This document shows, in pieces, positions 6,601 to 52,816 of a DNA stretch of 58,296 nt; position 1 is the first letter of the stretch, and every line of letters starts with the position of its first letter. A model generated the notes under the pieces. It did not search any database, was not told the origin of the DNA, and saw only the letters and a list, made by a program, of their open reading frames with translations. This DNA is from a virus. Both the position numbers and the translations under genes were made by a program. The stretch lies in the IMG/VR virus record IMGVR_UViG_3300029240_000011. One strand, given 5' to 3'.

Positions 6601-7997
6601 CCAAGCGTATAATCTTTCAGCTTCTTTGCCGCCGCTGCCGCATCGGACATGCCGTCTGCCATGTCATCTGCCGCCCCAGCGCCAAAATCAATCGCATTGC
6701 CCATGCCTTCCCAATCAGAGTAAGACCAGTCTGTCATCTTGAAGCCGAACAGCTTTGCCAGCGCCTGTGCGAATTCAGTCAAAACTTCTACGACCGCCTG
6801 CACAACTGGAATGATCTTCACCAAAGCAGGAATAAAAATACTTCCGATGGCGCGGGACAGCGACTTAAATTCCATATGTAGAATACGAAGTGCATTTGCT
6901 GGGGACTCCAGTGTTTTTGCCATATCTCCAATGACGCCCATGCGGGCAGACTGCTCCACAATCGCTGTATAGCGAATGATGGCTTTCTGCGCCTGTGTCA
7001 TCGTGCGGATCGACTGGTTTACACCGTGGTCATATGCTACCTGCTGAAGTGTTGCTTCATCCAGCGCATATCCGAGCCTGCGAAGCGGTTCCAATTCACC
7101 TGAAATACCGGACTGGACTTTCGCAAACGCGCCGTCACCAACCGCATCCAAACTGATATTGAAGAACGAAGAAATATCGTAGGAAAGTTCAGTCAGCCCT
7201 TTGGACAGGTTATAGGCCTGATCGTTTGCAAGGCCAAAGCCCTTTGCCATTGACATAAAAATGCCCTGGTTTCTCGTCCATTCAGAAATATCAATGCCGA
7301 GTTTGCTTTGCACCAGCTCTGCATATTCCATCGCTTCGCTGTAATATTCACCCATAGAAACGGAAAACAGATTCATATTTTCCACATAGGCGTTGATATT
7401 TGTAATAAACCCGCTTAGTACATCGGCAACAGCATTAATCCCAAATCCAAACAAAGTAAGGTTGGCAATGCTTTTCAAGCTGAATTTTCCGACGCTGTTA
7501 AAACTGTCTGCCGCCTTTTTATTGGATGCCGTCAAGCCGGAATTGCTTTGAATGATCTTCTGAATGCGGATTGGAAATGCTGCAAATCCCTTCGACACTT
7601 TTTCCATTTCCGCAGCCAACGGAGAAAGTGCAGCCGTTGCTTTCTTGATGGACTGAGCAAATTTATCCATATCCATTTGAGAAAGCTGACTCGAAATATC
7701 CGGAAGTTTTTTCAGTGCATTAATCGTAGAACTAAGGCCGCTCGACTTTTGCACCTCAGAAAGAGCTTTGAGTCCCCTTGCAATTTCAGATAGCTTTGTT
7801 CCGGAATTATCCGATCCAGACAAGGTGGTTTTCAGCCCGTCCAGCTGTTTCTTGATCGTGTTTAACCCGCGGACGCCACCGCTGGTGCTCGTTTTCAGTT
7901 CCTTCAGTGCCTCGGACAGCTTTTTGATATTTTCAGCCGCAGCATCGGACGATGCGCTGATCTCAATTTTGATGCTGTCAATTGTAGCCTCTGCCAT
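3621..7997 (-). CDS. tail tape measure protein (~1458 aa)
   Basis: Giant ORF. Alpha-helical A/E/K/L-rich N and C parts, glycine-rich TM-like middle. GGGGGA SD before ATG 7997. The track ORF extends to 8072 through the 48-bp repeat. Confidence 0.9.
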   Translation of the reverse strand: MAEATIDSIKIEISASSDAAAENIKKLSEALKELKTSTSGGVRGLNTIKKQLDGLKTTLSGSDNSGTKLSEIARGLKALSEVQKSSGLSSTINALKKLPDISSQLSQMDMDKFAQSIKKATAALSPLAAEMEKVSKGFAAFPIRIQKIIQSNSGLTASNKKAADSFNSVGKFSLKSIANLTLFGFGINAVADVLSGFITNINAYVENMNLFSVSMGEYYSEAMEYAELVQSKLGIDISEWTRNQGIFMSMAKGFGLANDQAYNLSKGLTELSYDISSFFNISLDAVGDGAFAKVQSGISGELEPLRRLGYALDEATLQQVAYDHGVNQSIRTMTQAQKAIIRYTAIVEQSARMGVIGDMAKTLESPANALRILHMEFKSLSRAIGSIFIPALVKIIPVVQAVVEVLTEFAQALAKLFGFKMTDWSYSDWEGMGNAIDFGAGAADDMADGMSDAAAAAKKLKDYTLGIDELNIIKPDTGAGASGGSGAVGGAGWEKDWDLDSVWDESVLKNITRQVDELKEKVKDILPIIGLVSAGFLAWKLGPSLLGNLGLLASGLKKAYVNALMLKNALIGANKSSKLPALVGFVPAVYAPIEKLAKLLTSGVFKNGLGAAIMGAGGASLASCIAAIAATVSGIALLGAGLLDTVTKSKLFQHGIAGIIEIIGDFTKPIVNLVSSVFPDFEFGWKGINEALENATGGFIRVSDLAITLGGLLLFGPAGLAIEGIVLGIKAIGKATEDIIQPVDLFGDSISAATRDNVEPFIDAMDTLDSSIKTLEWGNIVITDSDVSNIQSQLSSITDTIVNSLSADKNEALKNLEPLRNALGADKFAEYSANVARGYDEQIKAVTDGEAEINKIIAAAAAENRALTAEEAAQISSIQASMKDTGIQYLSDTQTEANVILQNMKDNAADLTALQAAEIIKNAASARDESVAAAESLYNDTIFQLQKLKDAGLITDAAYGDMRRAAESNLEAAKSKAEETFEATKITAQTELGEMSKYIDLETGEMKSHWDLFCEGVVEDWAPIWENVKTLTSEGLESVRTNFNNAMDFIGNAWEEFCDWLPQFAAKKFNEITTNISNWYNEKVKPLFSLETWKQLGQDAIDGLVKGLGSLWDTGKDFAQLLLAGFRSKEGIDSHSPSKAFEESGLDSRQGYIIGFGDAKGIGVSLGSDIAKGISQSTPAITAAAQGIADSVQKVFNGISYDPGTNYMALINAAKESGDFEEAARLETIRNAKIDGEGLNWEKTFDFTGVTDQFQQVADQFSVQTDAMNTDYSEFVIQTKTSTESIKTDVLASIETVDTALKTFITQTTNNFRTMAKQSNAQIQSIISALNAIPRNITTVHTIVTRNVSGGSGSTKGYASGGFPDTGELFLAREAGPELVGQIGKRTAVANNAQIVEGIRYGVADANAEQNALLQEQNELLRAILNKSGVYLDGKQLKKSVDKASRSSGANILIGGVV

Positions 7998-8026
7998 GTG
8001 CCAATTCCCCCTTTCGGTAAAATAAA

Positions 8027-8074
8027 TGGCACTTGGCACTGTTAGCTCCATCAGGGGAGAGGCACTTGGCACTG
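8027..8074. repeat. 48-bp element, perfect copy of 22031..22078 (two CAGTGCCAAGTGCC units on the minus strand)
   Basis: Read directly. Lies 30 nt upstream of the tape measure ATG. Confidence 0.9.
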
Positions 8075-9434: not shown

Positions 9435-9435
9435 G

Positions 9436-11370: not shown

Positions 11371-11372
11371 CA

Positions 11373-16560: not shown

Positions 16561-17631
16561 TTATTCCCCCAGGACGTTAAGTACTGCCACTTCGTCCATG
16601 CGCTCAAAGGAAGGCAAGACAATTTCGGATGCAAAGGTATTGATGTTTACGGGGTGCTCCTGCAGAACGCGGGTAATGGCAACTCCGGTATTTACAATGG
16701 AAACCTCTGCACTGGACGCTCCGCGCAGATCCGCCTCTTCCGGCGTAGTGCCATACCATGTTCCGCCAAGCGTTCCGTCAGGGATCAGGCAGACATAGCC
16801 GTTTGGCACAAACGCATGAGCAACCTTGCTCTCGTCCCGATACTGCTTATCGTAAATTGCAATCCGCAAACCAGAAGTAGACTCCACAACCGCCTTTACT
16901 TCATTTTCAGTCAGATATCCAAGAGACATGCCGTTGGTAGTCATATAACGGTTCTTTACAGCATCCGCTTTGGACAACAGATTGAAGGTATAGGAGTTCA
17001 TGATGGCTACAGTCAGCTCAGTGCCGGTTTTTGCACGGATTGCATCCTTAACCGCTTTGAACGCCGCAAAGGGATCTGCTGTTGCCGGCTTGTCCCAAGT
17101 TGCAGTACTGGTCAGAGCAGTGTAGTTGGTTGTTTTCCAGGAACCATCCGTATCGTATTTGTAGGTGTAATCCATCCCGTTTGCCTTGATCGCAATGCCA
17201 ACATCGCCGCCCTCCGGGAAAAGCAGCTGCATAATCATCCGCTCAGGGACAACATTCGCGCCATCAATCAAATCACGAGTATCGTCAAACACACGGGCGA
17301 TCACCTCAGCAGCATACGGGTCGGTAGACTCCTGCACTCGAAGCATCTCCTGCCGATCCTTCTCTTTGATCTTGTAACCCTCGCGGAAGAAGGGCATTTC
17401 CGTCTCCAGTTTCTCAAAGCCAATCCGATCCCGGAAGGTAGCCTTAGCATCAAAAGCGGAAGGCATCAGAGACACAGGCAGGCCACGGGAACCTTTGAGC
17501 CAGGACAGATCAAGGCCAGCCTTCTTGCGGGCAGGAAACAGGGTAGCGCCCAGATAGGGAATCTGGTTGGAAGCAACCTCCGTCCAGTTCGCCGCAATCG
17601 CAGCAGGTGTAAAAACTTCTCTCAAATCCAT
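16561..17631 (-). CDS. major capsid protein (lambda gpE-like family)
   Basis: 356 aa. Preceded by a gpD-like decoration gene and a scaffold gene. N-terminal pattern ...IPYLGATLFPARKK... Confidence 0.8.
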   Translation of the reverse strand: MDLREVFTPAAIAANWTEVASNQIPYLGATLFPARKKAGLDLSWLKGSRGLPVSLMPSAFDAKATFRDRIGFEKLETEMPFFREGYKIKEKDRQEMLRVQESTDPYAAEVIARVFDDTRDLIDGANVVPERMIMQLLFPEGGDVGIAIKANGMDYTYKYDTDGSWKTTNYTALTSTATWDKPATADPFAAFKAVKDAIRAKTGTELTVAIMNSYTFNLLSKADAVKNRYMTTNGMSLGYLTENEVKAVVESTSGLRIAIYDKQYRDESKVAHAFVPNGYVCLIPDGTLGGTWYGTTPEEADLRGASSAEVSIVNTGVAITRVLQEHPVNINTFASEIVLPSFERMDEVAVLNVLGE

Positions 17632-17644: not shown

Positions 17645-17977
17645 TTACTCGTTCACGCCGATGTTGTCCCGCAGGATAATCCCGGGCACTGCAAATGTCG
17701 TATCCAATGTTACACCAGAATGCTCCTGAGCTTTTGCCTTGTCTACAACGCCCTGAACCAGCAGCGCTCCGTTCGGATTCTCTGTCGGATCTACATCGTA
17801 CAGGAGCATACCTGCAGCAGTAGCATAAGACGTGGATGCAATCTTTTTCCCAGCAGAAGTCATCGGCGTTCCAGCCTTAACAGTCGATGTTTCATCCACT
17901 TTAATAGGAATTGCCACAAAATCGTCAGCAGCCAAAATTTCTACAGTGCCGCCAACAGAAGTCTTGGAAAACTTCAT
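17645..17977 (-). CDS. head decoration protein (gpD-like)
   Basis: 110 aa lying directly upstream of the capsid gene. Confidence 0.6.
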   Translation of the reverse strand: MKFSKTSVGGTVEILAADDFVAIPIKVDETSTVKAGTPMTSAGKKIASTSYATAAGMLLYDVDPTENPNGALLVQGVVDKAKAQEHSGVTLDTTFAVPGIILRDNIGVNE

Positions 17978-17995
17978 CTGTTTCTCTCCTTTTCA

Positions 17996-18568
17996 TCAAA
18001 AATAGTGTTTCAAACCTTCGTTTGCATTTTTGAGGGCATCGGCCCGCTGCTTGCCCAGCTTCTTGGCAAACTCTACGGCCTCATTCTTGCCGACCTCTCC
18101 ACCACCAGCACCGTCAGGCTTAGGGTCCTGCTTCACCAGATCAGCCCGCAGCTTCTTCTCATATGCGGCGTTGGCCTTCTGCTGGTTGGCAAAGACCCGC
18201 TCCATATCGCCGTCAAACAACGCCTCTGCTGTCTCGCGGGCCAGCTTCTCGTCATAGCCCGGCATGGCGATATAGCGGGCGGTGTGCTCGGCAATGGTGG
18301 ACTTCCGCAGCAGTTCGGTGTACTTGCCCTCCAGCTCCTTGCGGTCTGCATCGGCTTGGGCCTTTGCGGCCTCGTCATCGGTCATTTTGGATTTGAGCTG
18401 CTTTTTCAGTTCAGCGGCCTCTGTCGCATATTTGTCCGCAGTATCTTTCGACACATACAAAGACAAATCCACCTTCTCAGGAATTTCAGCTTTCAGAAGT
18501 GCATCTACCTTCTGTTCAGCAGTCATCCCATCAAAGCCCTCAATCGTGCTGATATCAATGGTGGCCAT
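17996..18568 (-). CDS. capsid scaffolding protein
   Basis: 190 aa, coiled-coil, A/E/K-rich. Position fits. Confidence 0.7.
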   Translation of the reverse strand: MATIDISTIEGFDGMTAEQKVDALLKAEIPEKVDLSLYVSKDTADKYATEAAELKKQLKSKMTDDEAAKAQADADRKELEGKYTELLRKSTIAEHTARYIAMPGYDEKLARETAEALFDGDMERVFANQQKANAAYEKKLRADLVKQDPKPDGAGGGEVGKNEAVEFAKKLGKQRADALKNANEGLKHYF

Positions 18569-18929: not shown

Positions 18930-19157
18930 TTACTTTGTTGCATTGTGTTGCCACTCAAGTTCTTGCTCATCCAAATACTTGTGCCGCACCATATATCTCT
19001 CAATTTCATTTTCTGGGTAATTCGCAATAGCGTTGTAACTTCTCACATAGATATCGTGCGATTCTGGCAAGCCCTGTAATGACCTTTCCCAAGATTTCAC
19101 AATCACGCCAATCTGATTGCCATCTACTACGACAATGTCTCCAAAACAAAATTTCAT
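18930..19157 (-). CDS. hypothetical protein (75 aa)
   Basis: ATG 19157 forms an ATGA overlap with the upstream stop. Confidence 0.5.
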   Translation of the reverse strand: MKFCFGDIVVVDGNQIGVIVKSWERSLQGLPESHDIYVRSYNAIANYPENEIERYMVRHKYLDEQELEWQHNATK

Positions 19158-19759
19158 TTCACGGCCTCCAGCCAACACCTACATCGTCTATGGGGCTTCG
19201 GTGGTATCGCGTTAATGGAGTACACCTTCCCATTTCGCTCCCGGCAAGTTTCGCATACCTTTTCGTCACCAGCAGTAATCCACTTGACCTTTTTTACCCC
19301 GGCATCTCGATAGGCTTTTAGAGTTGATTCATCGGTCACGATATCCCCGTATGTAGCGGTCAGGTCAGCCCAGTAATGCAGCCCCCGTCGAAACTCAGTC
19401 ACCTTGGCCGTGCTGGAATTGATGCCCTCAGCGGTGTACTGCCTCTTTCGTTCGGCGTCGTTGTCATAGATAACCTTCGTGACGGCGTTATAAGCCGCCA
19501 GCAATGCCAGTAGCCACGCTAAATCAGGCGGTTCCTCTCCATGCGGTTCGGCCTCCTGATACCGCTCTTGCGCCAGCTCTAAAAAGGCAGACTGGTTATC
19601 GAATTGAAGGTCTCGGTATAAGCTCCGTGTGATTTCAAGCACATTAAGTTCATCAAAATTCAACCTTGCGGCTTGGTCTTTTGCGCTCTCAAACCTTCTA
19701 ATCGCTTTTTTATTAAGCAATTCAATCGTTTTGTCACTAAGCTCCCAGTACCTGCTCAT
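19154..19759 (-). CDS. head morphogenesis protein (SPP1 gp7 / Mu F-like)
   Basis: C-terminal ...WITAGDEKVCETCRERNGKVYSINAIPPKPHRRCRCWLEAV motif. Confidence 0.8.
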   Translation of the reverse strand: MSRYWELSDKTIELLNKKAIRRFESAKDQAARLNFDELNVLEITRSLYRDLQFDNQSAFLELAQERYQEAEPHGEEPPDLAWLLALLAAYNAVTKVIYDNDAERKRQYTAEGINSSTAKVTEFRRGLHYWADLTATYGDIVTDESTLKAYRDAGVKKVKWITAGDEKVCETCRERNGKVYSINAIPPKPHRRCRCWLEAVK

Positions 19760-20498
19760 TTAATTTCCCACCTTGTATAGGCTTTGTTAGAGCTTCTTCT
19801 AAACTCCATCCAGCCTTAATCCGGTATCGCAAAGTGCTTGAACTAACTCCATATTCTTTCGCAAGTTGCGCCAGTGTTTTTTGCTCACCCCTAAACAAAA
19901 TCTTTTTTGTATCTCTTCGGTTGTTTTGCTGTGTGTCCCAATCTACCCAGCGACAATTATCTGGCGAATAATCCTTGTTGGCATCTATTCTGTCTAAACT
20001 GCATTCCACAAATTTAAGAGCAGGGTCATATCCGCTTTGCTCGGCCCATTGCATGAAAGACTGAAAATTGTGCCATTCATCACAAACTTTTATTCCTCTT
20101 CCGCCGTAATTTTCATAACCCGTACTTGTGGGCCTACTGCACCTTCCTATCATATTGGCCCAAATCGAATACAGCCTACTATCGCATTGCCCATGTTTTT
20201 TCTTTGTTGTACTTGCTCTTTCTTTTTGGAGACATCCACAACTTTTAGATGCACCTTTTTTCAATGACTCTGTTGGAAACTCTTTGATTGTTCCACAATC
20301 ACACTGGCAAACCCAAAATGCTTGCCTATACTTTCGTGTTTTAGATGGAGATAAAACGACAAGCCTTCCGAATCTTCGCCCGGTCAAATCTACATGCTTT
20401 CCCAATATTGCTACCGCCTTTCGTAGTGCCTTATATTGTGAACTTGGAGGAAAACGGTAAGGCTTCCGTCTTGTCGCGTTGCAATCGCTATCCTCCAA
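19737..20498 (-). CDS. homing-endonuclease-like protein (Zn-ribbon DNA-binding module + degenerate HNH-like LDRID..NCRW module + C-terminal HTH)
   Basis: LTGRRFGRLVV, WVCQCDCG...SCGC, YGGRGIKVCDEW, SLDRIDANKDYSPDNCRW. Paralogous to 25794..26939. Start is uncertain. Confidence 0.55.
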   Translation of the reverse strand: MEDSDCNATRRKPYRFPPSSQYKALRKAVAILGKHVDLTGRRFGRLVVLSPSKTRKYRQAFWVCQCDCGTIKEFPTESLKKGASKSCGCLQKERASTTKKKHGQCDSRLYSIWANMIGRCSRPTSTGYENYGGRGIKVCDEWHNFQSFMQWAEQSGYDPALKFVECSLDRIDANKDYSPDNCRWVDWDTQQNNRRDTKKILFRGEQKTLAQLAKEYGVSSSTLRYRIKAGWSLEEALTKPIQGGKLNEQVLGA

Positions 20499-20506: not shown

Positions 20507-21964
20507 CTACTCACTTTGGGCTTCTTCAACATTCGATTGGACATGCTCTCCACGGGAAATTTCATCTCGCAAAGACCTTTGAAGTACAGCCTGCTGCTCT
20601 TCGTAGTAAGATTGAGAAATCCTGTACGCAGATTCTGGGTCGCTGAACAACCCACTGTACTGGAACGCCAGCTTCGGATGGATCTTGCTGTTGTTCAGCA
20701 TCTCCGCCAGAACCTGAGCCTTAGACTGAATGTTAGACAGGTTTTTCCGAGTGAACTCCGGCTTGATGTCGGACAGCTGCAAGCCCAAATCTCCAGTCTC
20801 CCGGCAGATATACAACACCAGCCGTAGAAACTCTCTCTCTGACCGCTCCCATGTCTTTTCCGTGTCCTTAGCCCGGCTCTCAGCAGCAGACCAGCCGTCC
20901 CGGTAAATGACCGCCTGACCGGTGTCGCTTGTAGAGGAACCGCCGTTCCGGTTCGGCATCCCGCAGATGGTTAGATAGGCGTCTTCCAAATCGTCCACAA
21001 CAGTCTGCGTGTTGGCCTGATTCAGCTCAGAGGCAATGCGGTAGACTTTGGCTTCCATACCAGGAACACCCTTAATTTCAATCGCCATGCCTCCAGAAGC
21101 AAGGGATCTGTATGCGTTCTTGTCAATTTCGCAATTCTGGAACACATCAAAAGCGTTCACGAAATCCTGGATACTGTCCAGCCGGTTAGACTCAATCATA
21201 TTGATGGCGTTCAGGATAGGGATGACCGGCTCAAAGGCCCCCATTCGTGCATCGTTGTTCACATACTCCACAATGGGGATGTATGGTATGGTGCGGGTCT
21301 CTTGCTTCGTGATCTTACCGTTCTGTACCTCGAAGTACCACTCCGGGGTATATACACAAAAATAAGGCTGACACTCTTCGTCTACTTGTTCTATCACACC
21401 CGCGACCTTTTTCTGCCCGATTCCGCTGTGATAGATGCAGAACGCAGCCCTCGGATCAAGGGTGTAAATGGATACGGGGGAACCATCTTCTTCTCCTGCT
21501 TCATCAGGGAGAACCATACGTACCGCCACACCGCAAATGTGCATCCAGTCTGCCAGTTCCTTATCGAGAGTGTCCTTGCTCTCGGCCCGCATATACTCAT
21601 TAAGTGTGTTTACACTGGCGGAAATATCATCCTCTCCGCCGTTGGATACATAGCGGATCGGGCCATCCAGCAGATAGGCCGTCTTGAAGGTCACGATCTC
21701 GTTCGCACGGTTAATCATCACCTTGTTGTTAATCTCCGGGCGGACGATTTTATTTTTCAGGCGGATGTCCTGTTTCCCTCTGTAATAATCATACAGGTAG
21801 GCTGTTTCTACCCTGTTGATACGATGCACTGCCAGCGCTTTTCCCAGAACATCCACCACATTTTCCGGGGTGACTCGCTTTTTCGAGGTGTAGATTTTAC
21901 GCCGACCCGTCAAACCATTGACCGGCCACTCAGATAAAGCTCGAACAGTATCGTTTTCAGTCAC
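20507..21964 (-). CDS. portal protein (SPP1 gp6-like)
   Basis: ~485 aa lying between TerL and MuF. GGAGG lies 7 nt before GTG 21964. The track ORF runs upstream into the 48-bp repeat. Confidence 0.8.
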   Translation of the reverse strand: MTENDTVRALSEWPVNGLTGRRKIYTSKKRVTPENVVDVLGKALAVHRINRVETAYLYDYYRGKQDIRLKNKIVRPEINNKVMINRANEIVTFKTAYLLDGPIRYVSNGGEDDISASVNTLNEYMRAESKDTLDKELADWMHICGVAVRMVLPDEAGEEDGSPVSIYTLDPRAAFCIYHSGIGQKKVAGVIEQVDEECQPYFCVYTPEWYFEVQNGKITKQETRTIPYIPIVEYVNNDARMGAFEPVIPILNAINMIESNRLDSIQDFVNAFDVFQNCEIDKNAYRSLASGGMAIEIKGVPGMEAKVYRIASELNQANTQTVVDDLEDAYLTICGMPNRNGGSSTSDTGQAVIYRDGWSAAESRAKDTEKTWERSEREFLRLVLYICRETGDLGLQLSDIKPEFTRKNLSNIQSKAQVLAEMLNNSKIHPKLAFQYSGLFSDPESAYRISQSYYEEQQAVLQRSLRDEISRGEHVQSNVEEAQSE

Positions 21965-22030
21965 CTTGCCACCTCCAAACAAACAAAAAAGCGCCAACAA
22001 GAATCCGGGAAATGAATCTCGGAAACTCAT

Positions 22031-22078
22031 TGGCACTTGGCACTGTTAGCTCCATCAGGGGAGAGGCACTTGGCACTG
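22031..22078. repeat. 48-bp element, perfect copy of 8027..8074
   Basis: Read directly. Sits in the leader of the portal gene. Confidence 0.9.
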
Positions 22079-22237
22079 GTTTATTTCAGTTTTCCTCAAA
22101 GGAAGAACTATTTTTATGTTTTTATGACATCCTTTGCAATATGGATAAACAGTTCCATTTGCATCGTCTTCTACTTCCATAAGCTTTCTTCGGATACCGG
22201 CGGCGGCACATATTGGGCAAAAAACATTTACCTTCAA
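22055..22237 (-). CDS. small zinc-ribbon protein (Mu Com-like pattern CPxC...CxxC)
   Basis: 60 aa, VFCPICAAAG...YPYCKGCHKNIKIV. TTG start. The 3' end runs into the repeat. Confidence 0.45.
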   Translation of the reverse strand: MKVNVFCPICAAAGIRRKLMEVEDDANGTVYPYCKGCHKNIKIVLPLRKTEINQCQVPLP

Positions 22238-22263
22238 TCAACCGCCCACCTTTCCTGAAAATT

Positions 22264-22337
22264 TGGAGCAGCGCACGGGTCTTGAACCCGTACCATCAGC
22301 TTTGAAAGCTGGTATGCGCCAATTACACCAGCGCTGC
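22264..22337 (-). tRNA. tRNA with anticodon UCA (opal suppressor type), CCA encoded
   Basis: Hand-folded cloverleaf: 7/7 acceptor pairs, 5/5 T stem with loop TTCAAGA, 4-bp D stem with GG in the loop, anticodon loop TT-TCA-AA, 4-nt variable loop, discriminator T. Confidence 0.8.
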
Positions 22338-22501
22338 AAATAGCCCTCGTAACAGGGCTATGTTGTGTGATTATCAGGATTTGCACACCGTCCTATACAT
22401 GCGCCATTTGTTTTCTCCCACTATACAGCGCAAGATACAATGGGAAAAGTGTCTCTTCCACAGCCAGCAAACCAGATTGGTTTATTTCCGCTTTTGCGGA
22501 T

Positions 22502-22578
22502 TGGTGGCACGGGGTGGGCTTGAACCGCCTTGTGCTCCCATCTGAGAGCCTATGCCCATCCATTCGGACATCCGTACC
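22502..22578 (-). ncRNA. tRNA-like element / tRNA pseudogene (acceptor, D and T arms present; non-canonical anticodon arm)
   Basis: GGTACGG/CCGTGCC acceptor stem + A + CCA. D stem GTCC/GGGC. T stem has one C-A mismatch. The anticodon region folds as GCTCTC-agat-GGGAGC, or with an 8-nt loop. Confidence 0.55.
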
Positions 22579-22654
22579 GTATTTGGGCCTCCGGCGATGT
22601 ACCGTCGGCCCGCTTACTCTCTCCCGAAATACTATATATTGTATTTCTTTTTTA

Positions 22655-22683
22655 ATTATACCACAATATAATGTGTTTGTAAA
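22655..22683 (-). promoter_or_regulatory. strong sigma-70-type promoter TTTACA-17-TATAAT (TG-extended) driving the tRNA locus
   Basis: Read directly. It is a near-duplicate of 31466..31494. Confidence 0.7.
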
Positions 22684-22714
22684 CCAATTTATGAGAAAAA
22701 ACACAAGATACTTT

Positions 22715-24337
22715 TTAAAACGGGCGTCGGAATACCTCCACCTTGTTCCCTTCTAGTTGCTGGACATACTCAGCAAACATTGCCAAAGCATCAGGAACAT
22801 CGTCATGTTTATTTTTACCTGCCATCGTATACCCGCAAAGGAAGTTGAGCATCCTTCGATATTCCTTGCCCTTCTTTATGACAGAGTTGTCTTTGAACAG
22901 CACATGGTCTTTCACCCACGGCGAGTTCACTATGATTTTTGTTTCCTTTTGCTGTGTCGTATATTTTGTGGTGATTTTCGCTATACCGCCAGCTTCTTTA
23001 ACTTCTTTCTGAACTTTTTCTGCTACTTTCCCACCAGCGCTGTTGCTTTCAAACTGGCCCATTTGAGCCTTATGCTGAAGGAGCTTTGACACCAGCCGCG
23101 CCTCTACAACCTCTGGATTGCTGTTGTCACATACCACGTCTTCGCAATAGAAGTCATTTCCGTACTGATAGCAAATTGGCATGACGCAGTAGTCAGTTCC
23201 CTTGTCTTTCGTGTCGCAAACGAACAGAATAGCGTCTGGCTTACCATCAGGAAGCTCAAAGTAGCGCCGTAGCTCATCTTCGTTGTAGAGCTGCCCTTCA
23301 CGCTCGATGGGTTGCGTCATGTAAAGTGCTCTCCATGATGCATCATCCATGACATCTCTCTGATTGTGATAGAATGCCGTGGTAAACCCAAGCCCATACG
23401 GATAATCAAAATTACTCTCATCGTTTTCATCCAGAGCAGGTAGGTGGATAAACTCTGCCAGTGGGTCTTCTGCATGGGCTAGTTCAAGTCGGTCAATGGG
23501 GTCATGCAGCGTCCATGGAGTTTGGACAAGGAGCTGGACGCAATCGCCAATCATTCTTTGCATCAGATCGGTATAATACTGTTGCCAGAGTTTATCCATC
23601 CGTTCTTTGCTCATTGCAGATTCAATATCAGGTACAAGGTCATCTGCTACCAGAAGATTAGAGGCACGAACTTTGCCCGCGTTACCAGATCCAATGGACG
23701 AAAACTCAAAGGTCTCAAACCGCTTTCGTTTTCCAAGATCAATTCGCATGTCCTGGGCGTTTGTTTTGCAAACTTGAGCAGATGGAAAAATATCTTTCCA
23801 CAAATACTCCCCTTTGGGGTCTAACATCCGCCCAACTTCTTCATAAGCCCCACGTAGGAATGAGTTTGAGTGCGAACCCATCAGAATGCTTAAATCTGGA
23901 TTCTTTAACCCCTCCATCACCATGAACATCAATTCAATGGTGGTCTTCCCGACGCCTGGGGGAGCCATAACACCCAAAATGCGTATCTTCCGTTCAGATA
24001 GCCGCTGCATGGCCTTGACAACAGGAAGTAGCTGCTTTCTGCGTGGCATATAAAACTTCTTTTTCGGCTCTCTATCCCACTCAGCATATCTTATCGCCGC
24101 ATCAAAATCATACGGTGCATCAAACAGCAGACTTCGCTTATTCAGATCAAACATCTTGAAGCTGTTCTGCTCTTTGGCATATTTGGCCGATAGGCGGCGG
24201 ACTTCCTTATTAACGCTGTGGGCTTCTTCAAAATTTTCGGATTCATACAATCTACATACATCAAACAAATCTTGCAACGCAGAGGCATCAGATAGATCTC
24301 TCTCTCTTGCTTTCTTAATCAGTTCATCAAGCTTCAC
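22715..24337 (-). CDS. terL: terminase large subunit
   Basis: 540 aa. Walker A MAPPGVGKTT. LLVADDLV Walker B-like motif. GTG start with a GGAGG SD. Confidence 0.85.
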   Translation of the reverse strand: MKLDELIKKARERDLSDASALQDLFDVCRLYESENFEEAHSVNKEVRRLSAKYAKEQNSFKMFDLNKRSLLFDAPYDFDAAIRYAEWDREPKKKFYMPRRKQLLPVVKAMQRLSERKIRILGVMAPPGVGKTTIELMFMVMEGLKNPDLSILMGSHSNSFLRGAYEEVGRMLDPKGEYLWKDIFPSAQVCKTNAQDMRIDLGKRKRFETFEFSSIGSGNAGKVRASNLLVADDLVPDIESAMSKERMDKLWQQYYTDLMQRMIGDCVQLLVQTPWTLHDPIDRLELAHAEDPLAEFIHLPALDENDESNFDYPYGLGFTTAFYHNQRDVMDDASWRALYMTQPIEREGQLYNEDELRRYFELPDGKPDAILFVCDTKDKGTDYCVMPICYQYGNDFYCEDVVCDNSNPEVVEARLVSKLLQHKAQMGQFESNSAGGKVAEKVQKEVKEAGGIAKITTKYTTQQKETKIIVNSPWVKDHVLFKDNSVIKKGKEYRRMLNFLCGYTMAGKNKHDDVPDALAMFAEYVQQLEGNKVEVFRRPF

Positions 24338-24957: not shown

Positions 24958-25623
24958 TCAGGCATTATTTTGATCCAGTCCATACTTTTCTAACAACTCC
25001 CTCTTTTTCGAATCATACGCGGACTTTGCACTTTCAATAGACAGAAAACCCGTTTTTACCCAGCGTTCTCCAGAAACCTGAACGGCTACTCTGTATGTCT
25101 TGCCATTCTTTTCCAACATAACGCCACGCACACCGGTTTTGCTTCTTATCATCGCCTTATCTGACTTCACCGCCGCAATATCCGCACGTTTTGTTCCGCC
25201 CGTTTCTACGAACTTGGCCTTAACAGCAAGATCAGAGTATTTCTTCATTTCCTCGCTTTTGTATTGCTGGCAGCCGCATCCTTTTGGCTTATTCCTTATC
25301 GTCTGCGCGGGGAACTCTTTTTCAGATCCGCACATGGAACACTTGCACAGATACAGCGCGTTCCTGTGCTTGTCAATTCCGGTTCGCTTTAATACAGTCA
25401 GCGCACCATAGATTTTTCCGGTAAGATCTGCTGTTTTCTCACGCTTCTTGCATCCACAGTCTTTCTTTGGCGATTTTTTATCGGTTAACCGTTGGCCCTC
25501 CACGACGCACTCATTTCCGCATCTGCGACATATGCACCGCCAAAGCATGGCGCCTTTGGGCGAGCGCCCAGCGGGTTCTATTACTGTCAGTTCCCCAAAC
25601 CTTTGGCCGATGAGGTCTTTCAT
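24958..25623 (-). CDS. homing-endonuclease-like DNA-binding protein (two Zn-ribbon modules + C-terminal AP2 domain)
   Basis: LIGQRFGELTV, WRCICRRCG...DCGC, CKCSMCG...GCGC, then TGVRGVMLEKNGKTYRVAVQVSGERWVKTGFLSIESAKSAYD. Confidence 0.6.
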   Translation of the reverse strand: MKDLIGQRFGELTVIEPAGRSPKGAMLWRCICRRCGNECVVEGQRLTDKKSPKKDCGCKKREKTADLTGKIYGALTVLKRTGIDKHRNALYLCKCSMCGSEKEFPAQTIRNKPKGCGCQQYKSEEMKKYSDLAVKAKFVETGGTKRADIAAVKSDKAMIRSKTGVRGVMLEKNGKTYRVAVQVSGERWVKTGFLSIESAKSAYDSKKRELLEKYGLDQNNA

Positions 25624-25793
25624 CTTACTCACCAAAACCACCCTCTTTTTGTTTTGTGCGGCGATTTTTCAATGCGCCTTTTTTTCACGGGATTTTAGAA
25701 AGCTCTCCTTTCCAGCACATACCACTGGATCTTACTAATCCCAATCTGCTTACAGGCGGCCTCCACTGTGATGGAGCCGTCTTTTTTTATTTT

Positions 25794-26939
25794 TTAGGAT
25801 ATTGTCGTTTTTGGCCTACCAGCGGTAACTTTCGGCGTGGTTAATGCCTCGTATGGTGTCATGCCCATTTTCTTAATGCGGTAAGATACAAAAGAAAAGC
25901 TCAATCCGTATTGCTCGCACCAATCAATGGCCGACTTCGTTTCTCCATTAATCTCCCATTCCAGTTTCCGTTTCCTGCTCCGCTTTTTGGTTGGTCTTGC
26001 GGTAAATGTATATTTCGGATGTTGATTGTTTGCTTGCGCCTTTGCATCAGCCCACCTACAATTATCTGGTGAGTACCCTTTGTCGTTATCAATTCGGTCT
26101 ATTGATAAATTATCGGCATACCCATGCGACAGAGCCCAATCCCTAAACGCAAACACATCCTCTCTCCATTCATCACAAATGTCTATTCCTCGCCCACCGT
26201 ATGTTTTCCACGCATGGTTTTTGTGGTTATAACACCGCTCTTTCATTCCGCTCCAAATTCTGTATATCCTATCTTTTGATAATCCATGTGTACTAATAAG
26301 GGACTTATGATGAATACAATCTGCTTTTCCACAACTCTTTATTGTCCCATTTTCAAAAAGCACCGGATTTACTTCAACTGATCTACCGCAATCACATCTG
26401 CACACAAACATCTTTTTGCGTTTTCCAACAACGGTTAGATGGTATTTTCGAACACCTCTCCATTTTTCTATATCAAACTTTCCTCGGTTTGTTTGGCAAA
26501 TACAAACCATAGGATTTTCTCTCAACAAAAACTTTGGAGCGTGGTAATTCTCTGCACCACAAAAGGTACATCTCGTTTTCCAGCCGAATCCCGTTTTATA
26601 TCCAATTATCTCCCAGCATCCAATTTTCTGCCCAATCCACTTTGGGTTGCTTGGCAAATTTTCTCTTTTAATCCTTGCGGTTTCCTTTTCCGCTGCTATT
26701 CTTTTTCTTGTTTCACACCCACAAATCCCTTGATTCTTCCCTTTCGCATAATCTTTCCCGTTATGCGTGACTTTCTTCCTTCCGCACTTCTGACAGGTTA
26801 GCTCCCACATCTGTTTATGTGTTTCCCAATCATACCAAACACGGGTAACTTCAAAATCGCCGTACACTTTCCCGATTCTGTCAGAATAAAACTGATCCTG
26901 CATTTCAAGAACCTGTTTCTTGTTTGCCTCGTTAAACAT
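25794..26939 (-). CDS. homing-endonuclease-like protein (three Zn-ribbon modules + IDRIDNDKGYSPDNCRW module + HTH)
   Basis: 381 aa. Paralogous to 19737..20498. ATG overlaps the recombinase stop. Confidence 0.55.
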   Translation of the reverse strand: MFNEANKKQVLEMQDQFYSDRIGKVYGDFEVTRVWYDWETHKQMWELTCQKCGRKKVTHNGKDYAKGKNQGICGCETRKRIAAEKETARIKRENLPSNPKWIGQKIGCWEIIGYKTGFGWKTRCTFCGAENYHAPKFLLRENPMVCICQTNRGKFDIEKWRGVRKYHLTVVGKRKKMFVCRCDCGRSVEVNPVLFENGTIKSCGKADCIHHKSLISTHGLSKDRIYRIWSGMKERCYNHKNHAWKTYGGRGIDICDEWREDVFAFRDWALSHGYADNLSIDRIDNDKGYSPDNCRWADAKAQANNQHPKYTFTARPTKKRSRKRKLEWEINGETKSAIDWCEQYGLSFSFVSYRIKKMGMTPYEALTTPKVTAGRPKTTIS

Positions 26940-27597: not shown

Positions 27598-27627
27598 CCC
27601 ATCTCGCCTCCTTTTGTTTGCAAATTC

Positions 27628-29224: not shown

Positions 29225-29752
29225 TCACTCCTCCACCACCACAGACCCGGCGATCCGCTCTTCAAGCTGTTTCTGGTCTGGAGAGTCGCCGAGGGGCTGA
29301 TTCGGGGTGAGAACCAGGTCTTGAACATCTTTCATGCCATAGAAGTTCTTAGACCTAAAAATATACGTAGTCTCCGGGATTTTGCGTCCAAGCACCAATT
29401 CTGCGTCGATATTTGATAAAATTTGTTTCGCTTTTTTTATCATGTTCGACCTCGCGGAACTGCATCCATTCCCATTTTCCCATTCCCAAACAGTAGACCG
29501 AACAGCGCCCAATGCAAGGCACATCTTCTCAACGGTAGGGATTTCCCCGGTTCTTCCACACTCTGCAAAGAACTCATTCAGTCTGTCTGCACACTCATCA
29601 TCAGACTTAACAATCTGCTTATTAAACCACTTGTAAGAGTTCCTGACGATTTGAGCGATTTCTTCTTTCTTTGCTGTGGTAGTCGCTTCAATGGAGGCTG
29701 ACTTCGACCCTCTTTTCCTGACGGGCTGTGTCATAGTCACATCCTGCTCCAT
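29225..29752 (-). CDS. terS: terminase small subunit
   Basis: ...FFAECGRTGEIPTVEKMCLALGAVRSTVWEWENG...TYIFRSKNFYGMKD, the TerS HTH + oligomerisation pattern. Start at MEQDV (the track ORF is longer). Confidence 0.7.
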   Translation of the reverse strand: MEQDVTMTQPVRKRGSKSASIEATTTAKKEEIAQIVRNSYKWFNKQIVKSDDECADRLNEFFAECGRTGEIPTVEKMCLALGAVRSTVWEWENGNGCSSARSNMIKKAKQILSNIDAELVLGRKIPETTYIFRSKNFYGMKDVQDLVLTPNQPLGDSPDQKQLEERIAGSVVVEE

Positions 29753-29759
29753 AGTCGCA

Positions 29760-29978
29760 TCATTCTTGCTCAGAGTTGTCACCTCCGTTATCTTTTCTCC
29801 AAATCCATTTTGCTTTTCTGCGAACAGAAACGACCTCACCGTTTTGACAATAAATTACATCATCATCAGACTTATATCTCTTTCCGTATGCCCAATTTTC
29901 AATCTGGACTCCAAATGTATGCGGTACTCCGATATGTGAAAGTTGTTTCCTTATGTCTTTGGGCAAGATAAATCCCAT
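29760..29978 (-). CDS. hypothetical protein (72 aa)
   Basis: Track ORF. Confidence 0.5.
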   Translation of the reverse strand: MGFILPKDIRKQLSHIGVPHTFGVQIENWAYGKRYKSDDDVIYCQNGEVVSVRRKAKWIWRKDNGGDNSEQE

Positions 29979-36082: not shown

Positions 36083-36856
36083 TCATAATTCGATCTCCAT
36101 CTGCATTTTCTCTTCAAACAGCGGAGCAAGCATCTGTTTCTTTGCCGAATCGTAAAATTTTTTATCCACTTCAAACCCATAAGAATTTCGCCCCAATTCA
36201 TAAGCAGCCCGAAGTGTAGAGCCGCTCCCAGCGCATGGGTCAATCACTATATCTCCCAAATCTGTAAAAACTTCGATTAACCGCTTCAGCAATCCAACAG
36301 GCTTTTGGGTCGGATGGATTTTTGGGTAATCCCCGGAACTGTCCCTGCGCCATTCAAACCAATTGAATACCATATGTCCGTTATTACGGAATTTCGGAAG
36401 TTTGTTTCGATACAACACTACGGCAAACTCTGTGGCGCCAACGATCTTCATATTGGCTTTCAACACCTGCGAGGAGTAATTCTTGACAAAGAACAGAGGG
36501 TAGTTATGTAAAAAGCCATATCGCTTCCCGTAGTCAATCACCGTCTGCATCTGTTCAAATGCACAGAATACAATCATGGCCGGGGCTTGACCTTTTTCTT
36601 GTGGTTCTTTTTTCAAAAGTCGGTTACAGAAATGCATATATTCCGCAATTTTGAAATTTCCATCCGTGTGGAAGAAACTCTGCTTTGCCAGTTTGCTTTC
36701 CCCGTTTTTGTTATCTCCACCCTTATACCACATAGGGTTACTGGCATAGGCATTCGATCCGATGTTATACGGAATATCTGCAATCACCAGCTGCGCTTTG
36801 GGGATCCCATATCGCTTAAAATTCTGAAAATTATCATGATATAACTCACATTTCAC
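36083..36856 (-). CDS. DNA N6-adenine/N4-cytosine methyltransferase (beta class)
   Basis: VIADIPYNIG (DPPY-type) and IDPCAGSGSTLRAA (AdoMet motif). AAGGAG lies 9 nt before GTG 36856. Confidence 0.8.
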   Translation of the reverse strand: MKCELYHDNFQNFKRYGIPKAQLVIADIPYNIGSNAYASNPMWYKGGDNKNGESKLAKQSFFHTDGNFKIAEYMHFCNRLLKKEPQEKGQAPAMIVFCAFEQMQTVIDYGKRYGFLHNYPLFFVKNYSSQVLKANMKIVGATEFAVVLYRNKLPKFRNNGHMVFNWFEWRRDSSGDYPKIHPTQKPVGLLKRLIEVFTDLGDIVIDPCAGSGSTLRAAYELGRNSYGFEVDKKFYDSAKKQMLAPLFEEKMQMEIEL

Positions 36857-37106
36857 AAAGCTTATCTCCTTTTCTACACATTCTCCTTTTTGTATCGATG
36901 CAATTTGTGCATTCATCCTTTTTACACTGCAAGCACATGCGGATCTGCTTCGGCGTATCGTACAAAACCGCCTTTTCTTTTAGCCAAATGCCGTCAGCTT
37001 TCAAGATACGACGCACCGTCTCGGCAGAACACCCCAAAACAGCGCCAATCTCCGCGGTGCTTTCATGTCGAAGGTAACGCTTCGCGATCTCACTTCTCTC
37101 CGACAT
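36846..37106 (-). CDS. small HTH (sigma region-4-like) protein with Cys-rich tail
   Basis: SEIAKRYLRHESTAEIGAVLGCSAETVRRILK. Confidence 0.5.
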   Translation of the reverse strand: MSERSEIAKRYLRHESTAEIGAVLGCSAETVRRILKADGIWLKEKAVLYDTPKQIRMCLQCKKDECTNCIDTKRRMCRKGDKLCEM

Positions 37107-37480: not shown

Positions 37481-38743
37481 TCATGTCATCATCTCCCACG
37501 AATATTGTTTTGCCGGGCTTTTGCCCGCCTGATAGAGCCGCTTTGACGGCTCGTTATATTCCAGCCCAATCCGAGCCCTTGCGCCGAATTCACGGTTTTT
37601 CAAGATCGTCAGCAGGGAGGAATAGCCCGCCTCCCCTACTTTGTCCTCTGGGACGCGCTCGACCTTGAACACGTTGTCTGCGCGGTTCGTAATATCGCTG
37701 GATCCGCCAATATCGTCTGCCTCCAGCGGCTTATCCCCGGTCTTGCGGGGGTGCGCCACCAGATGCACATGCACGTCAAGGCGTTTTGCAAAGGCCACCA
37801 GCCGCCCGGTAAAGGACGATTGCGCCCGCCAGAACCCAAGCTGCGCCTCGTCTTTCAGCTCTGCGGTCATGATGTTGTCCACAAGGAACACATCGCATCC
37901 GTACCGGCGATAAGCGTACTCGAAGATCTTCATGATATTTGCCTCGTCGTGCGCATCTTTGCGCTGGATATCGGTCAGAAATAATCTCCCGTCCCACCAT
38001 GCGTTGATCGCAGGGAGCACGGATGGAGCAATGTCATAAAACACTCTTCCGCTCACAGCGTCTTCCCGGCGCTTCACATGCAGATATCCGGCCGCCTGCT
38101 GCAGCAGGCCCATTTTGAAATCCTCCTTCGGGAGTTCTCCGGAATAGGCACATACCTTCCGCCCCTGATTCACCGCATCCAGCAGGATCTGGCCCAGCAA
38201 TGTGCTTTTCCCTTCGCCCCGTTTCCCCGTCCAGACCGACAGAGCGCCCCCGCTGAATCCCCCGATGGCTTTGTCCAGCTCCGGGATCCCGGACACCACG
38301 CGCCTGGCGTTTTTCCGTTTCGTTGTATCCACATCGGCAAGGTTCAACAGACCCTGCACCGGCAGCTCTTCGGCTTCCATCAGCAGCTTGTCCATCGCCT
38401 TGAAACGCCCATTGTCCCACAGCTCTTTCAGCGTGGCGCAGCCCCGGAACGCCTTCGGCTTCGGGACCATAACCGGAGTAAAAAACCGGTTCTGCAGCTC
38501 CTCCGCAATCTCCTCCTGCTTCGGCCCAGGAGGGACGGCCAGCAGTATGTACGGGAACTGTTCCACCCATTCCTTCCACGGCTCCAGATCCGACCATTTT
38601 GCCAGAAGGGACAGGCACACCGCGTTCGTCCCAACCGCCTGCGCATCCTCCGCGGTGGCACACCACCACAGGCCGGTGGATGCAGAAGGATCCATCATCT
38701 CCGGGCGGAATACCAGAGCGCCGTCAGAGTTTCCAGTAATCAT
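37481..38743 (-). CDS. DnaB/gp4-like replicative helicase with Toprim-like N-terminal region
   Basis: Walker A GKRGEGKST. VFLVDNIM. HVHLVAHPRK. GSSDITNRADNVF. Confidence 0.75.
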   Translation of the reverse strand: MITGNSDGALVFRPEMMDPSASTGLWWCATAEDAQAVGTNAVCLSLLAKWSDLEPWKEWVEQFPYILLAVPPGPKQEEIAEELQNRFFTPVMVPKPKAFRGCATLKELWDNGRFKAMDKLLMEAEELPVQGLLNLADVDTTKRKNARRVVSGIPELDKAIGGFSGGALSVWTGKRGEGKSTLLGQILLDAVNQGRKVCAYSGELPKEDFKMGLLQQAAGYLHVKRREDAVSGRVFYDIAPSVLPAINAWWDGRLFLTDIQRKDAHDEANIMKIFEYAYRRYGCDVFLVDNIMTAELKDEAQLGFWRAQSSFTGRLVAFAKRLDVHVHLVAHPRKTGDKPLEADDIGGSSDITNRADNVFKVERVPEDKVGEAGYSSLLTILKNREFGARARIGLEYNEPSKRLYQAGKSPAKQYSWEMMT

Positions 38744-39463: not shown

Positions 39464-39904
39464 TTAGAACGGAAGTTCTCCGTCTCCTGAATCATCCATA
39501 GGGATGATTCCGCTGCCTGTTTCACTGCCAGATACACTGTCGGAAACACTGCTGTTATGCAATCCGTTTTGGCCGGATTCTTCTCCGCGGTCGCCAAAAT
39601 AAACGCTGCTTGCAATGACCTCTGCGGACACTCGTTTGTTTCCTTCCTTGTCCGTCCACTCGCGCATCTGCAGGCGGCCGTCCACAACTGCCATACGGCC
39701 CTTTGCAAAATATCGGCTGACGAACTCTGCCGTCGCGCGCCAGGCCACTACATCGACCCAGTCAATACTCCTCTGGCCTGTCTGCGTGTCCTTGAAATCC
39801 CGCTCCACTGCCAGCCGAAACGACGCCACCGGAACGCCGGCCTGTGTTCTGCGCAGCTCCGGGTCTTTCGCCAATCGGCCCATGATCGTAATATGATTCA
39901 GCAT
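39464..39904 (-). CDS. ssb: single-stranded DNA-binding protein
   Basis: MLNHITIMGRLAKDPELRRTQAGVPVASFRLAV... OB-fold pattern and acidic DDSGDGELPF tail. Confidence 0.9.
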   Translation of the reverse strand: MLNHITIMGRLAKDPELRRTQAGVPVASFRLAVERDFKDTQTGQRSIDWVDVVAWRATAEFVSRYFAKGRMAVVDGRLQMREWTDKEGNKRVSAEVIASSVYFGDRGEESGQNGLHNSSVSDSVSGSETGSGIIPMDDSGDGELPF

Positions 39905-40231
39905 TCAAAGATAACTCCTTCCAAAAATCCGGATAAATTCATCGATATCCCATTTATATTTCTTCATAGCAGCCATCTGCGCCTCCCGTTGGAGCGGGAC
40001 ACGAAGGCTTGCCCCTTTATGTACTCCGTTCAGGTGACAGCGGTCATGGCATAGCAGAACCCATAACCCATAGCGCTTGCTTTTCGCCCTGTCAGGGCCG
40101 CCGAATACCTCGTGGCGGTCTAACTTATCCATCGATCCGTTGCGACCGCACAGGTGACAGCAGGAGCCTTCCTGAAGGATAGACTTGGCATAGCCATTGC
40201 CGTCCAGCTTCATGTTGTATTCATTGCGCAT
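39905..40231 (-). CDS. HNH-like nuclease (Ref / RecA-dependent-nuclease-like pattern)
   Basis: CHLCG...LDRHEVFGG...LLCHDRCH. Confidence 0.4.
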   Translation of the reverse strand: MRNEYNMKLDGNGYAKSILQEGSCCHLCGRNGSMDKLDRHEVFGGPDRAKSKRYGLWVLLCHDRCHLNGVHKGASLRVPLQREAQMAAMKKYKWDIDEFIRIFGRSYL

Positions 40232-52650: not shown

Positions 52651-52816
52651 GTATCGCTCCTTTCCGGGCAGCAAAAAACCGCCCTGTCAAATGAGTTGAC
52701 AAAAGCGGCTCTCTGCGATAGAATAAAGCCAGTAAGAATGGCTGCCATTGCAGTGGCGGTCGTCCCTGTGCAAGTTTGTAGCTTGAAGGAAACGCCGCTC
52801 ACCGCCTGGTGGGCGG

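Follow-up and report, generated by a model that had tools for sequence, protein, structure and literature searches.

A phage tRNA with anticodon UCA in a standard-code genome whose commonest stop codon is TGA

Why should a phage that ends its own genes with TGA carry a tRNA whose anticodon pairs with UGA? The question is raised by IMG/VR virus record IMGVR_UViG_3300029240_000011, a stretch of 58,296 nucleotides (hereafter the window) that encodes a tRNA with anticodon UCA in a slot between two genes taken as the large terminase and the portal. The usual explanation for such a tRNA, the decoding of TGA-recoded late genes, is inapplicable here because the genome is standard-code and uses TGA as an ordinary stop. 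We report observations on the gene, its structure, anticodon, context, distribution and conservation, and on the genetic code of the phage, and find that the tRNA gene is genuine and appears to be selectively maintained, with an anticodon UCA that pairs with UGA. Our preferred reading, to which we give a probability of about 0.55, is that the sequence encodes a functional but accessory, weak opal suppressor that probably inserts glycine.

22264..22337, minus strand: tRNA with anticodon UCA, a Gly(UCC)-like body and encoded CCA (ARAGORN, Rfam and direct reading)

An earlier sequence-only reading of this DNA had proposed a well-formed tRNA with anticodon UCA and had suggested an ARAGORN run as a check. 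At default settings ARAGORN returns a 74-nt minus-strand tRNA whose limits are exactly 22264..22337 and whose anticodon is tca, and the Rfam model RF00005 matches 22267..22337 (minus strand) over its full length (1-71) with 52.2 bits (gathering score 29; E=2.2e-8 for the whole window). The sequence is GCAGCGC-UG-GUGU-AAUUGGC-GCAU-A-CCAGC-UUUCAAA-GCUGA-UGGU-ACGGG-UUCAAGA-CCCGU-GCGCUGC-U-CCA, and its layout is the one first described: the acceptor stem forms 7/7 pairs, including G1:C72, C2:G71 and A3:U70, the T stem forms 5/5 pairs and closes the T-loop TTCAAGA, and the anticodon stem pairs 4/5 with a C27-A43 mismatch. The D stem has four pairs, two of them G-U wobbles (three pairs in the ARAGORN drawing). 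The 7-nt anticodon loop UUUCAAA contains U33, the anticodon U34-C35-A36 and A37, the variable loop has 4 nt, the discriminator is U73 and CCA is encoded. The canonical tRNA core is present (U8, G18-G19, U33, a purine at 37 and T54-T55-C56), position 21 is C where A is usual, and the naked RNA folds well (z=-3.3).

The 'SeC' label that ARAGORN gives to this gene comes from the anticodon alone. A tRNA-Sec (selC) was rejected, in agreement with the first reading: the geometry here is 7+5, with a 4-nt variable loop and U73 as discriminator, whereas bacterial tRNA-Sec combines an 8+5 acceptor/T-stem and a 6-bp D stem with G73 and a long variable arm. In a focused search, the general tRNA model outscored the tRNA-Sec model, which belongs to the same Rfam clan.

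The genome that carries this tRNA is standard-code and not that of a recoded phage. A 99-bp identical direct repeat at 1-99 and 58198-58296, at both ends of the window, identifies it as a complete circular contig of ~58.2 kb. A rough gene call by codon usage, trained on long open reading frames (ORFs), yields 95 genes with a coding share of 86% in the standard code. Their stops are TGA in 46, TAA in 44 and TAG in 5, so TGA is the commonest (48%), and the tetranucleotide ATGA stands at 18 of the 46 TGA stops. These counts, with no recoded genes, bear out the earlier statement that about half of the genes end in TGA, many of them in ATGA overlaps, in a standard-code genome. Read in the standard code, the major capsid protein, endolysin, integrase and helicase are intact against profiles, and no interruption breaks the long ORFs taken as terminase and portal. 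When every in-frame TGA of the complete genome was screened for coding signal on both sides, no credible case was found, the few hits being neighbouring genes that share a frame. A tblastn search of all TGA-spanning peptides against relatives was too noisy, as off-frame translations of conserved DNA align too, and a candidate at 37439 was rejected as an off-frame artefact. Because no gene has an in-frame TGA, the phage has no need of the tRNA for its own decoding; because its own genes need no UGA decoding, the tRNA is an accessory gene and not part of a code change.

What kind of locus, then, holds a tRNA that the phage does not need for its own decoding? The tRNA lies in a variable slot whose elements in the window are as follows.

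22038..22714, minus strand: variable cargo slot, here a suppressor cassette, between large terminase and portal
22655..22683, minus strand: putative sigma-70-like promoter, TTTACA-17-TATAAT with TG before the -10, about 30 nt after the stop of the large terminase (TerL)
22502..22578, minus strand: degenerate tRNA-like element, called by ARAGORN at lowered threshold only
22340..22361, minus strand: 8-bp hairpin AUAGCCCU-GUUACG-AGGGCUAU, ending 2 nt before the 5' end of the tRNA
22055..22237, minus strand: zinc-ribbon ORF of 60 aa (CPIC...CKGC), starting 26 nt after the tRNA and preceding the portal

Alignment with relatives breaks right after the terminase stop (22713) and resumes at ~22077, just before the portal, and the portal ORF adjoins the slot in relatives too. 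In a survey of 80 IMG/VR relatives, the slot holds tRNAs of the types Ile(GAT), Thr(TGT), Met(CAT), Gln(TTG) or Arg(CCG), irregular tRNA-like calls, or none, and the UCA tRNA occupies it in 5 contigs. The suppressor tRNA is one interchangeable allele in a tRNA cargo slot. The order in the window is promoter, tRNA-like element, hairpins in the leader, 8-bp hairpin, tRNA and zinc-ribbon ORF. The predicted promoter matches at 11/12 positions, is the sole promoter-like site in 21900-22800 and is kept in all suppressor-bearing cassettes. Between it and the tRNA, the 313-nt leader (22338-22650, minus strand) is unusually structured (z=-5.5) and includes a 14-bp hairpin near 22408-22447; it has no match in Rfam. 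The 8-bp hairpin next to the tRNA is invariant in a six-sequence alignment and is probably a precursor processing or insulating element.

Within the leader, the tRNA-like element combines a 7-bp acceptor stem, in which one pair is U3-G70, with an A73-CCA end and the T-loop-like GGTTCAAGCC. In place of a proper anticodon arm it forms a 6-bp hairpin whose loop of 4 nt (6 nt in the ARAGORN drawing) offers no usable anticodon. Against the Rfam tRNA model the element does not reach significance; its minimum-energy fold resembles a cloverleaf (z=-2.3), and it is 97-100% conserved across all suppressor-bearing cassettes. It may have arisen as a decayed tRNA or serve as a tRNA mimic in processing. Transfer-messenger RNA calls that ARAGORN makes in the cassette at very low thresholds were judged noise. 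The zinc-ribbon ORF is a conserved core gene, present in essentially all relatives at 50-73% identity (tblastn) and without a Pfam or PHROG match. In slots that end in Met(CAT) it starts 26 nt after the Met tRNA, the same spacing as after the suppressor, and it is likewise present where the slot lacks a tRNA or has one farther upstream. Among the irregular slot tRNAs of relatives are an Ile(GAT) with T at position 37 and several ARAGORN 'tRNA-???' calls with 2-nt anticodons.

Is the tRNA kept, or is it a passing accident of this slot? Besides the window, 5 IMG/VR contigs and 8 ENA/JGI gut-metagenome contigs carry these 74 nt without a difference, always in the same slot, and recurrence of an identical sequence in 13 other related phage contigs makes the tRNA more than chance. 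The terminases of the suppressor-bearing phages have 80-94% protein identity to that of the window, and their helicase module 99-100%. Sequence differences are nearly absent from the cassette but number 12-21 per 50 bp in the terminase and portal genes on either side; these flanking genes differ by 10-20% despite the near-identical cassette, which therefore behaves as a module exchanged or retained through recombination. Variable sites among the 14 copies are distributed as follows.

Suppressor tRNA: 0/74
tRNA-like element: 2/77
Promoter: 1/29
Zinc-ribbon ORF: 19/183
Remaining intergenic DNA: 24/315

The tRNA thus has no variable site, versus 46/604 in the rest of the cassette (binomial probability ~0.003), which we take as modest but real evidence of purifying selection. 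The sequence appears to be maintained and not decaying, and the indications of function are confined to the promoter-bearing cassette and to a conservation stronger than that of the flanks. An ancestor with another anticodon was found neither with the 3' half, searched with a free anticodon in IMG/VR (5 contigs, all TCA), nor with the 5' half, searched in metagenomes (8 contigs, all TCA). This tRNA and one poor candidate are the only Gly-type arms with TCA in IMG/VR, none of the 67 terminase relatives found in GTDB genomes, where prophage copies were sought, carries a suppressor tRNA, and the GenBank phage collection returns 0 matches for the 14-kb neighbourhood (megablast) or a 141-nt tRNA region (blastn). 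The close DNA relatives all come from human-gut metagenomes. Terminase relatives in GTDB lie mostly in metagenome-assembled genomes (MAGs) of Oscillospiraceae, Acutalibacteraceae, Ruminococcaceae and other Clostridia (best 77% identity), and the host is probably a standard-code gut clostridium of the Oscillospirales, with the proviso that binning of phage contigs into MAGs is unreliable.

Which amino acid would such a tRNA carry? The sequence-only reading leaned toward a relative of tRNA-Cys(GCA), and comparison led us to revise this. We searched IMG/VR with the arm pattern CAGCNTNNNAAGCTGATGNT, which covers the anticodon stem and the start of the variable loop and leaves position 32 and the anticodon free. 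It returned 120 matches, 77 of which are tRNA-Gly(TCC), all with C32; ARAGORN called 87 of the matches as tRNAs, 84 as Gly and 0 as Cys, so the arm is a Gly(UCC) signature. Features shared with Gly(UCC) are the anticodon stem CAGC/GCUG, the variable loop UGNU, U73, G1:C72, C2:G71 and C35. A blastn search with the 74-nt tRNA against E. coli genomes, aimed at glyT, cysT and trpT, gave 0 matches, and E. coli-type glyT copies from the IMG/VR loci served for comparison instead: one such copy among the arm-match loci has 57/74 identity to the tRNA and shares the T stem CGGG/CCCG, the 4-nt variable loop UGNU and A15/U48. Among the tRNAs collected for comparison, T73 is found in 36/47 Gly and 3/3 Cys tRNAs and in 0/4 Trp tRNAs, which all have G73. 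A tRNA-Cys(GCA) derivative was rejected on U34 in place of G34 and on the 0/120 arm matches that are Cys, with U73, C35 and A36 present; a tRNA-Trp(UCA) of code 4 was rejected on U73, whereas all four compared Trp tRNAs have G73.

The body is best read as a bacterial tRNA-Gly(UCC) type, and the changes that would derive it from Gly(UCC) are three, all in the anticodon arm: C36A, C32U and the opened C27-A43 pair. C36A would at the same time create the A36-A37-A38 context used by the A37 isopentenylation enzyme. The identity elements of glycyl-tRNA synthetase (GlyRS) in E. coli and Thermus are U73, G1:C72, C2:G71, G3:C70, C35 and C36. The phage tRNA keeps 4/6, C36 being lost to A36 and G3:C70 to A3:U70. 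With identity base C36 replaced by A it is not an ordinary tRNA-Gly; it is better called Gly-derived or Gly-like, and predicted to be charged with glycine. Glycine at UGA is our best guess and in our judgement a probable one, and laboratory glyT UGA suppressors and the tRNA-Gly(UCA) of code 25 lend it support.

How far does this carry a weak, glycine-inserting suppressor? Several observations weigh against it. Outside the anticodon arm the isotypes are not discriminated (similarity 0.80 to Leu(UAA) and 0.72 to Gly, His and Asn), and the Gly assignment therefore rests on the arm and the acceptor end. As A36 and A3:U70 replace GlyRS identity elements, charging may be poor or carried out by another enzyme. 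The minimum-energy fold of the unmodified sequence is an extended alternative at -32.4 kcal/mol, versus -25.2 kcal/mol for the cloverleaf; non-cloverleaf minimum-energy folds are common for unmodified tRNA sequences. All copies are identical and show no covariation, which makes a covariation test impossible, and a recent spread of the cassette could account for much of the conservation. Finally, after many TGA stops the frame stays open over a long extension until a non-TGA stop is reached, and relatives that carry the suppressor tRNA use TGA about as often as those that lack it. The base after TGA stops has no bias. As the genome lacks a defensive adaptation and TGA usage is alike with and without the tRNA, suppression is probably weak or acquisition recent.

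A functional but weak opal suppressor would work as follows, in a scheme whose expression, charging, suppression and benefit we infer from sequence. The tRNA would be transcribed from the sigma-70-like promoter of the slot or by late-operon read-through, within a structured precursor that would be trimmed to a CCA-ended tRNA. Host GlyRS would charge it, sub-optimally owing to the lost C36, and the charged tRNA would compete with release factor 2 (RF2) at UGA, giving low-level glycine insertion and read-through. What the phage most likely gains, in our opinion, is a mild overall leakiness of UGA termination, tolerated in infection or lysogeny. That the phage keeps a Gly-type UGA reader for the sake of global leakiness, and not for its own decoding, is a speculative and rather improbable idea; in that case the leakiness might, for example, tip host RF2 autoregulation, blunt a host defence or a UGA-dependent competing phage, or reshape the lysogen proteome. 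If true, it would contradict the need for TGA depletion before suppressor acquisition.

The slot itself suggests a plainer account, in which the tRNA is inert or near-inert cargo, folded and processed but hardly charged after the loss of C36, and hitch-hikes in an exchanged slot; in a cis variant it would be an RNase P/Z processing signal for the zinc-ribbon/portal mRNA, and its anticodon would be irrelevant. The position 26 nt ahead of the zinc-ribbon ORF is indeed taken by very different tRNAs, Met-CAT in relatives and the suppressor in the window. Odd tRNAs occur in the slot, as does a tRNA-like element that lacks an anticodon loop, the genome has no back-up-stop adaptation and the whole cassette appears recently spread. 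We nevertheless hold this account to be unlikely: the tRNA, anticodon loop included, is significantly more conserved than the rest of the cassette (0/74 against 46/604 sites), and the zinc-ribbon and portal genes persist in many relatives without a slot tRNA, which makes a cis role dispensable. Glycine charging of such a molecule is also possible, as E. coli glyT UCA mutants and the code-25 tRNA-Gly(UCA) illustrate. We give about as little credence to an opal suppressor charged with an amino acid other than glycine. Cysteine would fit U73, which is common to tRNA-Cys, and the loop UU-NCA-AA, which we take to be that of E. coli tRNA-Cys except at position 34; however, no arm match out of 120 is Cys and the CysRS identity base G34 is absent. 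Tryptophan would fit C35-A36, which are strong TrpRS determinants, and E. coli UCA opal suppressors are prone to Trp mischarging, but the sampled Trp tRNAs all have G73 where this tRNA has U73. Less probable again is a host-directed weapon or counter-defence, in which global UGA read-through would, for example, put a host defence protein out of action, change the lysogen proteome or undercut RF2 synthesis where prfB requires its frameshift. The tRNA is conserved, the phage has no internal use for it, and it appears to have its own strong, moron-like promoter (a putative one); yet no linked defence or anti-defence gene was found, and the phage's own 46 TGA-ended genes would be hit equally.

Two readings would tie the tRNA to the phage's own proteins, and both are very improbable. 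The tRNA could mark an early step of code change, or serve hidden TGA-recoded late genes, as Borges et al. place suppressor acquisition before recoding and describe one standard-code relative with a TGA suppressor (bioRxiv 10.1101/2021.08.26.457843). Their model starts from TGA-depleted stops (2.7% in the example) in a low-GC precursor, whereas the window has 46/95 TGA stops (48%) and a GC of ~47%. The complete genome is without a credible in-frame TGA, the major capsid protein and endolysin are intact, the terminase and portal ORFs are long and uninterrupted, and profile searches found no release-factor or aminoacyl-tRNA-synthetase gene among the genes of the window. For this genome such a reading is largely refuted. 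Programmed read-through, with the tRNA making a C-terminally extended form of one phage protein, is suggested by the small terminase (29225..29839), which is followed by 75 in-frame codons, by 39905..40231, which is followed directly by the ATG of 39464..39904, and by 17996..18568, with 17645..17977 following in frame. The small-terminase extension (TGA at 29227) was rejected, as the codons belong to a small conserved gene of their own, which most relatives have in another frame, and the site at 17998 was rejected as a tandem TGA-TGA ahead of the next gene. No extension is conserved at the protein level across relatives, and the remaining in-frame cases are at chance level, because one in three neighbouring genes shares the frame.

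Some stops and gene junctions deserve mention in their own right. On the minus strand (17993-17998, the 24327 region and the 40766 region), tandem in-frame TGATGA ends three genes and a TGA-TAG pair ends one more; immediate back-up stops are found in 4/46 TGA genes versus 1/44 TAA genes, too few for significance. Directly after the small terminase lies an ORF of ~54 aa (28997-29161, minus strand) that has 57-68% identity in many relatives. It has a TTG start with a tight ribosome-binding site (RBS) and no good start codon here, and it is in the small-terminase frame only in this genome and a few others.

If a weak opal suppressor is active here, a temperate phage carries and maintains it although half of its genes, and presumably many host genes, end in TGA. 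That would bear on how stop-codon reassignment starts, given that the current model assumes that the codon is depleted first, and on the tolerance of termination read-through in cells and phages. An active tRNA would also be a natural Gly-type UGA suppressor with three anticodon-arm changes, which could interest tRNA engineering. If it is inactive, it is one more oddity of a fast-evolving phage tRNA cargo slot.

How does this locus compare with known systems? Murgola and co-workers reportedly obtained laboratory UGA suppressors from E. coli glyT, a tRNA-Gly(UCC), by changing C36 to A. The phage tRNA would share this single anticodon change and the same kind of body; it differs in being natural, phage-borne and conserved, and in extra changes at 32, 27:43 and 3:70. 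A tRNA-Gly(UCA) of code-25 bacteria is said to have been described by Campbell et al. in 2013. Phage tRNA cargo regions, as in T4, T5 and mycobacteriophages, cluster accessory tRNAs in a hot spot that varies among close relatives. The slot resembles these regions in being a variable tRNA hot spot in a homing-endonuclease-rich genome (three HNH genes nearby), but cargo tRNAs normally read sense codons and this allele reads a stop. Judged by description, the tRNA-Gly(UCA) of Gracilibacteria, Absconditabacteria and their phages is likewise Gly-type with a UCA anticodon that reads UGA (PMC10746230). Code-25 organisms, however, have no UGA termination and use UGA densely as a Gly codon, whereas this phage and its probable host are standard-code. 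A 4-bp anticodon stem favours UGA reading by the near-cognate tRNA-Trp(CCA) (PMC13092985). The phage tRNA similarly leaves pair 27:43 open (C-A) and has a 4-bp anticodon stem, but its anticodon is fully cognate to UGA, and because of that any effect of the 27:43 mismatch on UGA reading is conjecture.

Among phages, suppressor tRNAs without matching recoding had already been reported (bioRxiv 10.1101/2021.08.26.457843; PMC12386605), and the novelty implied by the sequence-only reading was overstated. A standard-code relative of Agate carries a TGA suppressor and has 2.7% TGA stops (bioRxiv 10.1101/2021.08.26.457843), and the crAss-like phage Lera carries tRNA-Sup-CTA with no amber suppression (PMC12386605). 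Both have a suppressor tRNA without sense use of the stop codon, as here, but they avoid that stop (2.7% TGA) or back it up (TAG then TAA), and this genome does neither; they are also large, lytic-type phages of 150-180 kb, in contrast to a 58-kb temperate siphovirus. The recoded gut phages (crAss-like, Lak, Agate, Jade and others; bioRxiv 10.1101/2021.08.26.457843) likewise combine a phage tRNA with a stop anticodon (UCA), the human gut and a standard-code host. They have in-frame TGA or TAG in structural and lysis genes, a low code-11 coding density and TGA read as Trp, whereas the window has no in-frame TGA, 86% coding, TGA as commonest stop and a Gly-type body with U73. Suppressor tRNAs occur in 0.3% of standard-code bacterial genomes (PMC13092985), and a TGA suppressor accompanies 35% of TGA-recoded genomes in one survey (bioRxiv 10.1101/2021.08.26.457843) and 15% in another. 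What distinguishes the present case is the Gly-type body, the small temperate Clostridia phage, the position in a swap-in slot and, above all, TGA as the most used stop. The finding is mildly at odds with the depletion-first model of recoding and does not make a new category.

The phage is temperate and siphovirus-like, as its gene content by profiles and position indicates, and the minus strand carries nearly all genes of the window. Its recognisable genes are listed below.

3621..8072: tape-measure ORF, 1483 aa, named from size and position only
16561..17631: major capsid protein (profile search)
19154..19759: short minor head protein, 201 aa (profile search)
19737..20498, 24958..25641 and 25794..26939, minus strand: three HNH homing-type endonucleases (profile search)
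20507..22036, minus strand: portal, 509 aa, named only from size and its position between the terminase and the head genes
22715..24337, minus strand: large terminase, 540 aa, named only from size and position beside the portal
26932-27660, minus strand: serine recombinase
29225..29839: small terminase (profile search)
36083..36916: DNA methyltransferase (profile search)
37481..38743: primase/helicase (profile search)
40766..41353: ERF recombinase (profile search)
47278..48351, plus strand: tyrosine integrase (profile search)
51961..52674: endolysin (profile search)

The 540-aa terminase ORF has hundreds of relatives in IMG/VR and GTDB genomes (tblastn; the relatives are unannotated). The packaging/head module is heavily invaded by mobile genes, namely the three HNH genes and the serine recombinase, and the HNH gene at 19737-20498 lies between the portal and the short minor head protein. 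ARAGORN calls two tRNAs in the window. The second is a Thr(UGU) tRNA at 30775-30850 (minus strand; 66.5 bits, U73, encoded CCA), located between the early region and the small terminase gene.

A PD-(D/E)XK-like nuclease ORF at 37090-37440 (minus strand) has TTG as its only start. A good RBS (GGAGGTG) and ATG at 37447 open another frame, which runs into an A-rich run (GCAAAAAGGAAAG), and the frame switch at 37380-37460 may be a programmed frameshift or an assembly indel. In the tail-gene region, a low-GC (~37%) insert at 10401-12905 contains a Bro-N protein (12267-12905) and two ORFs of 290-294 aa without known function; it adjoins an int-alpA RNA motif (12938-13008, minus strand, 47.5 bits). 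With an anti-repressor-like gene at 8886-9566, the tail region insert resembles a moron/cargo island. A RAGATH-31 RNA motif lies at 51575-51629 (minus strand), just downstream of the endolysin gene region, and scores 75.1 bits, above its gathering score.

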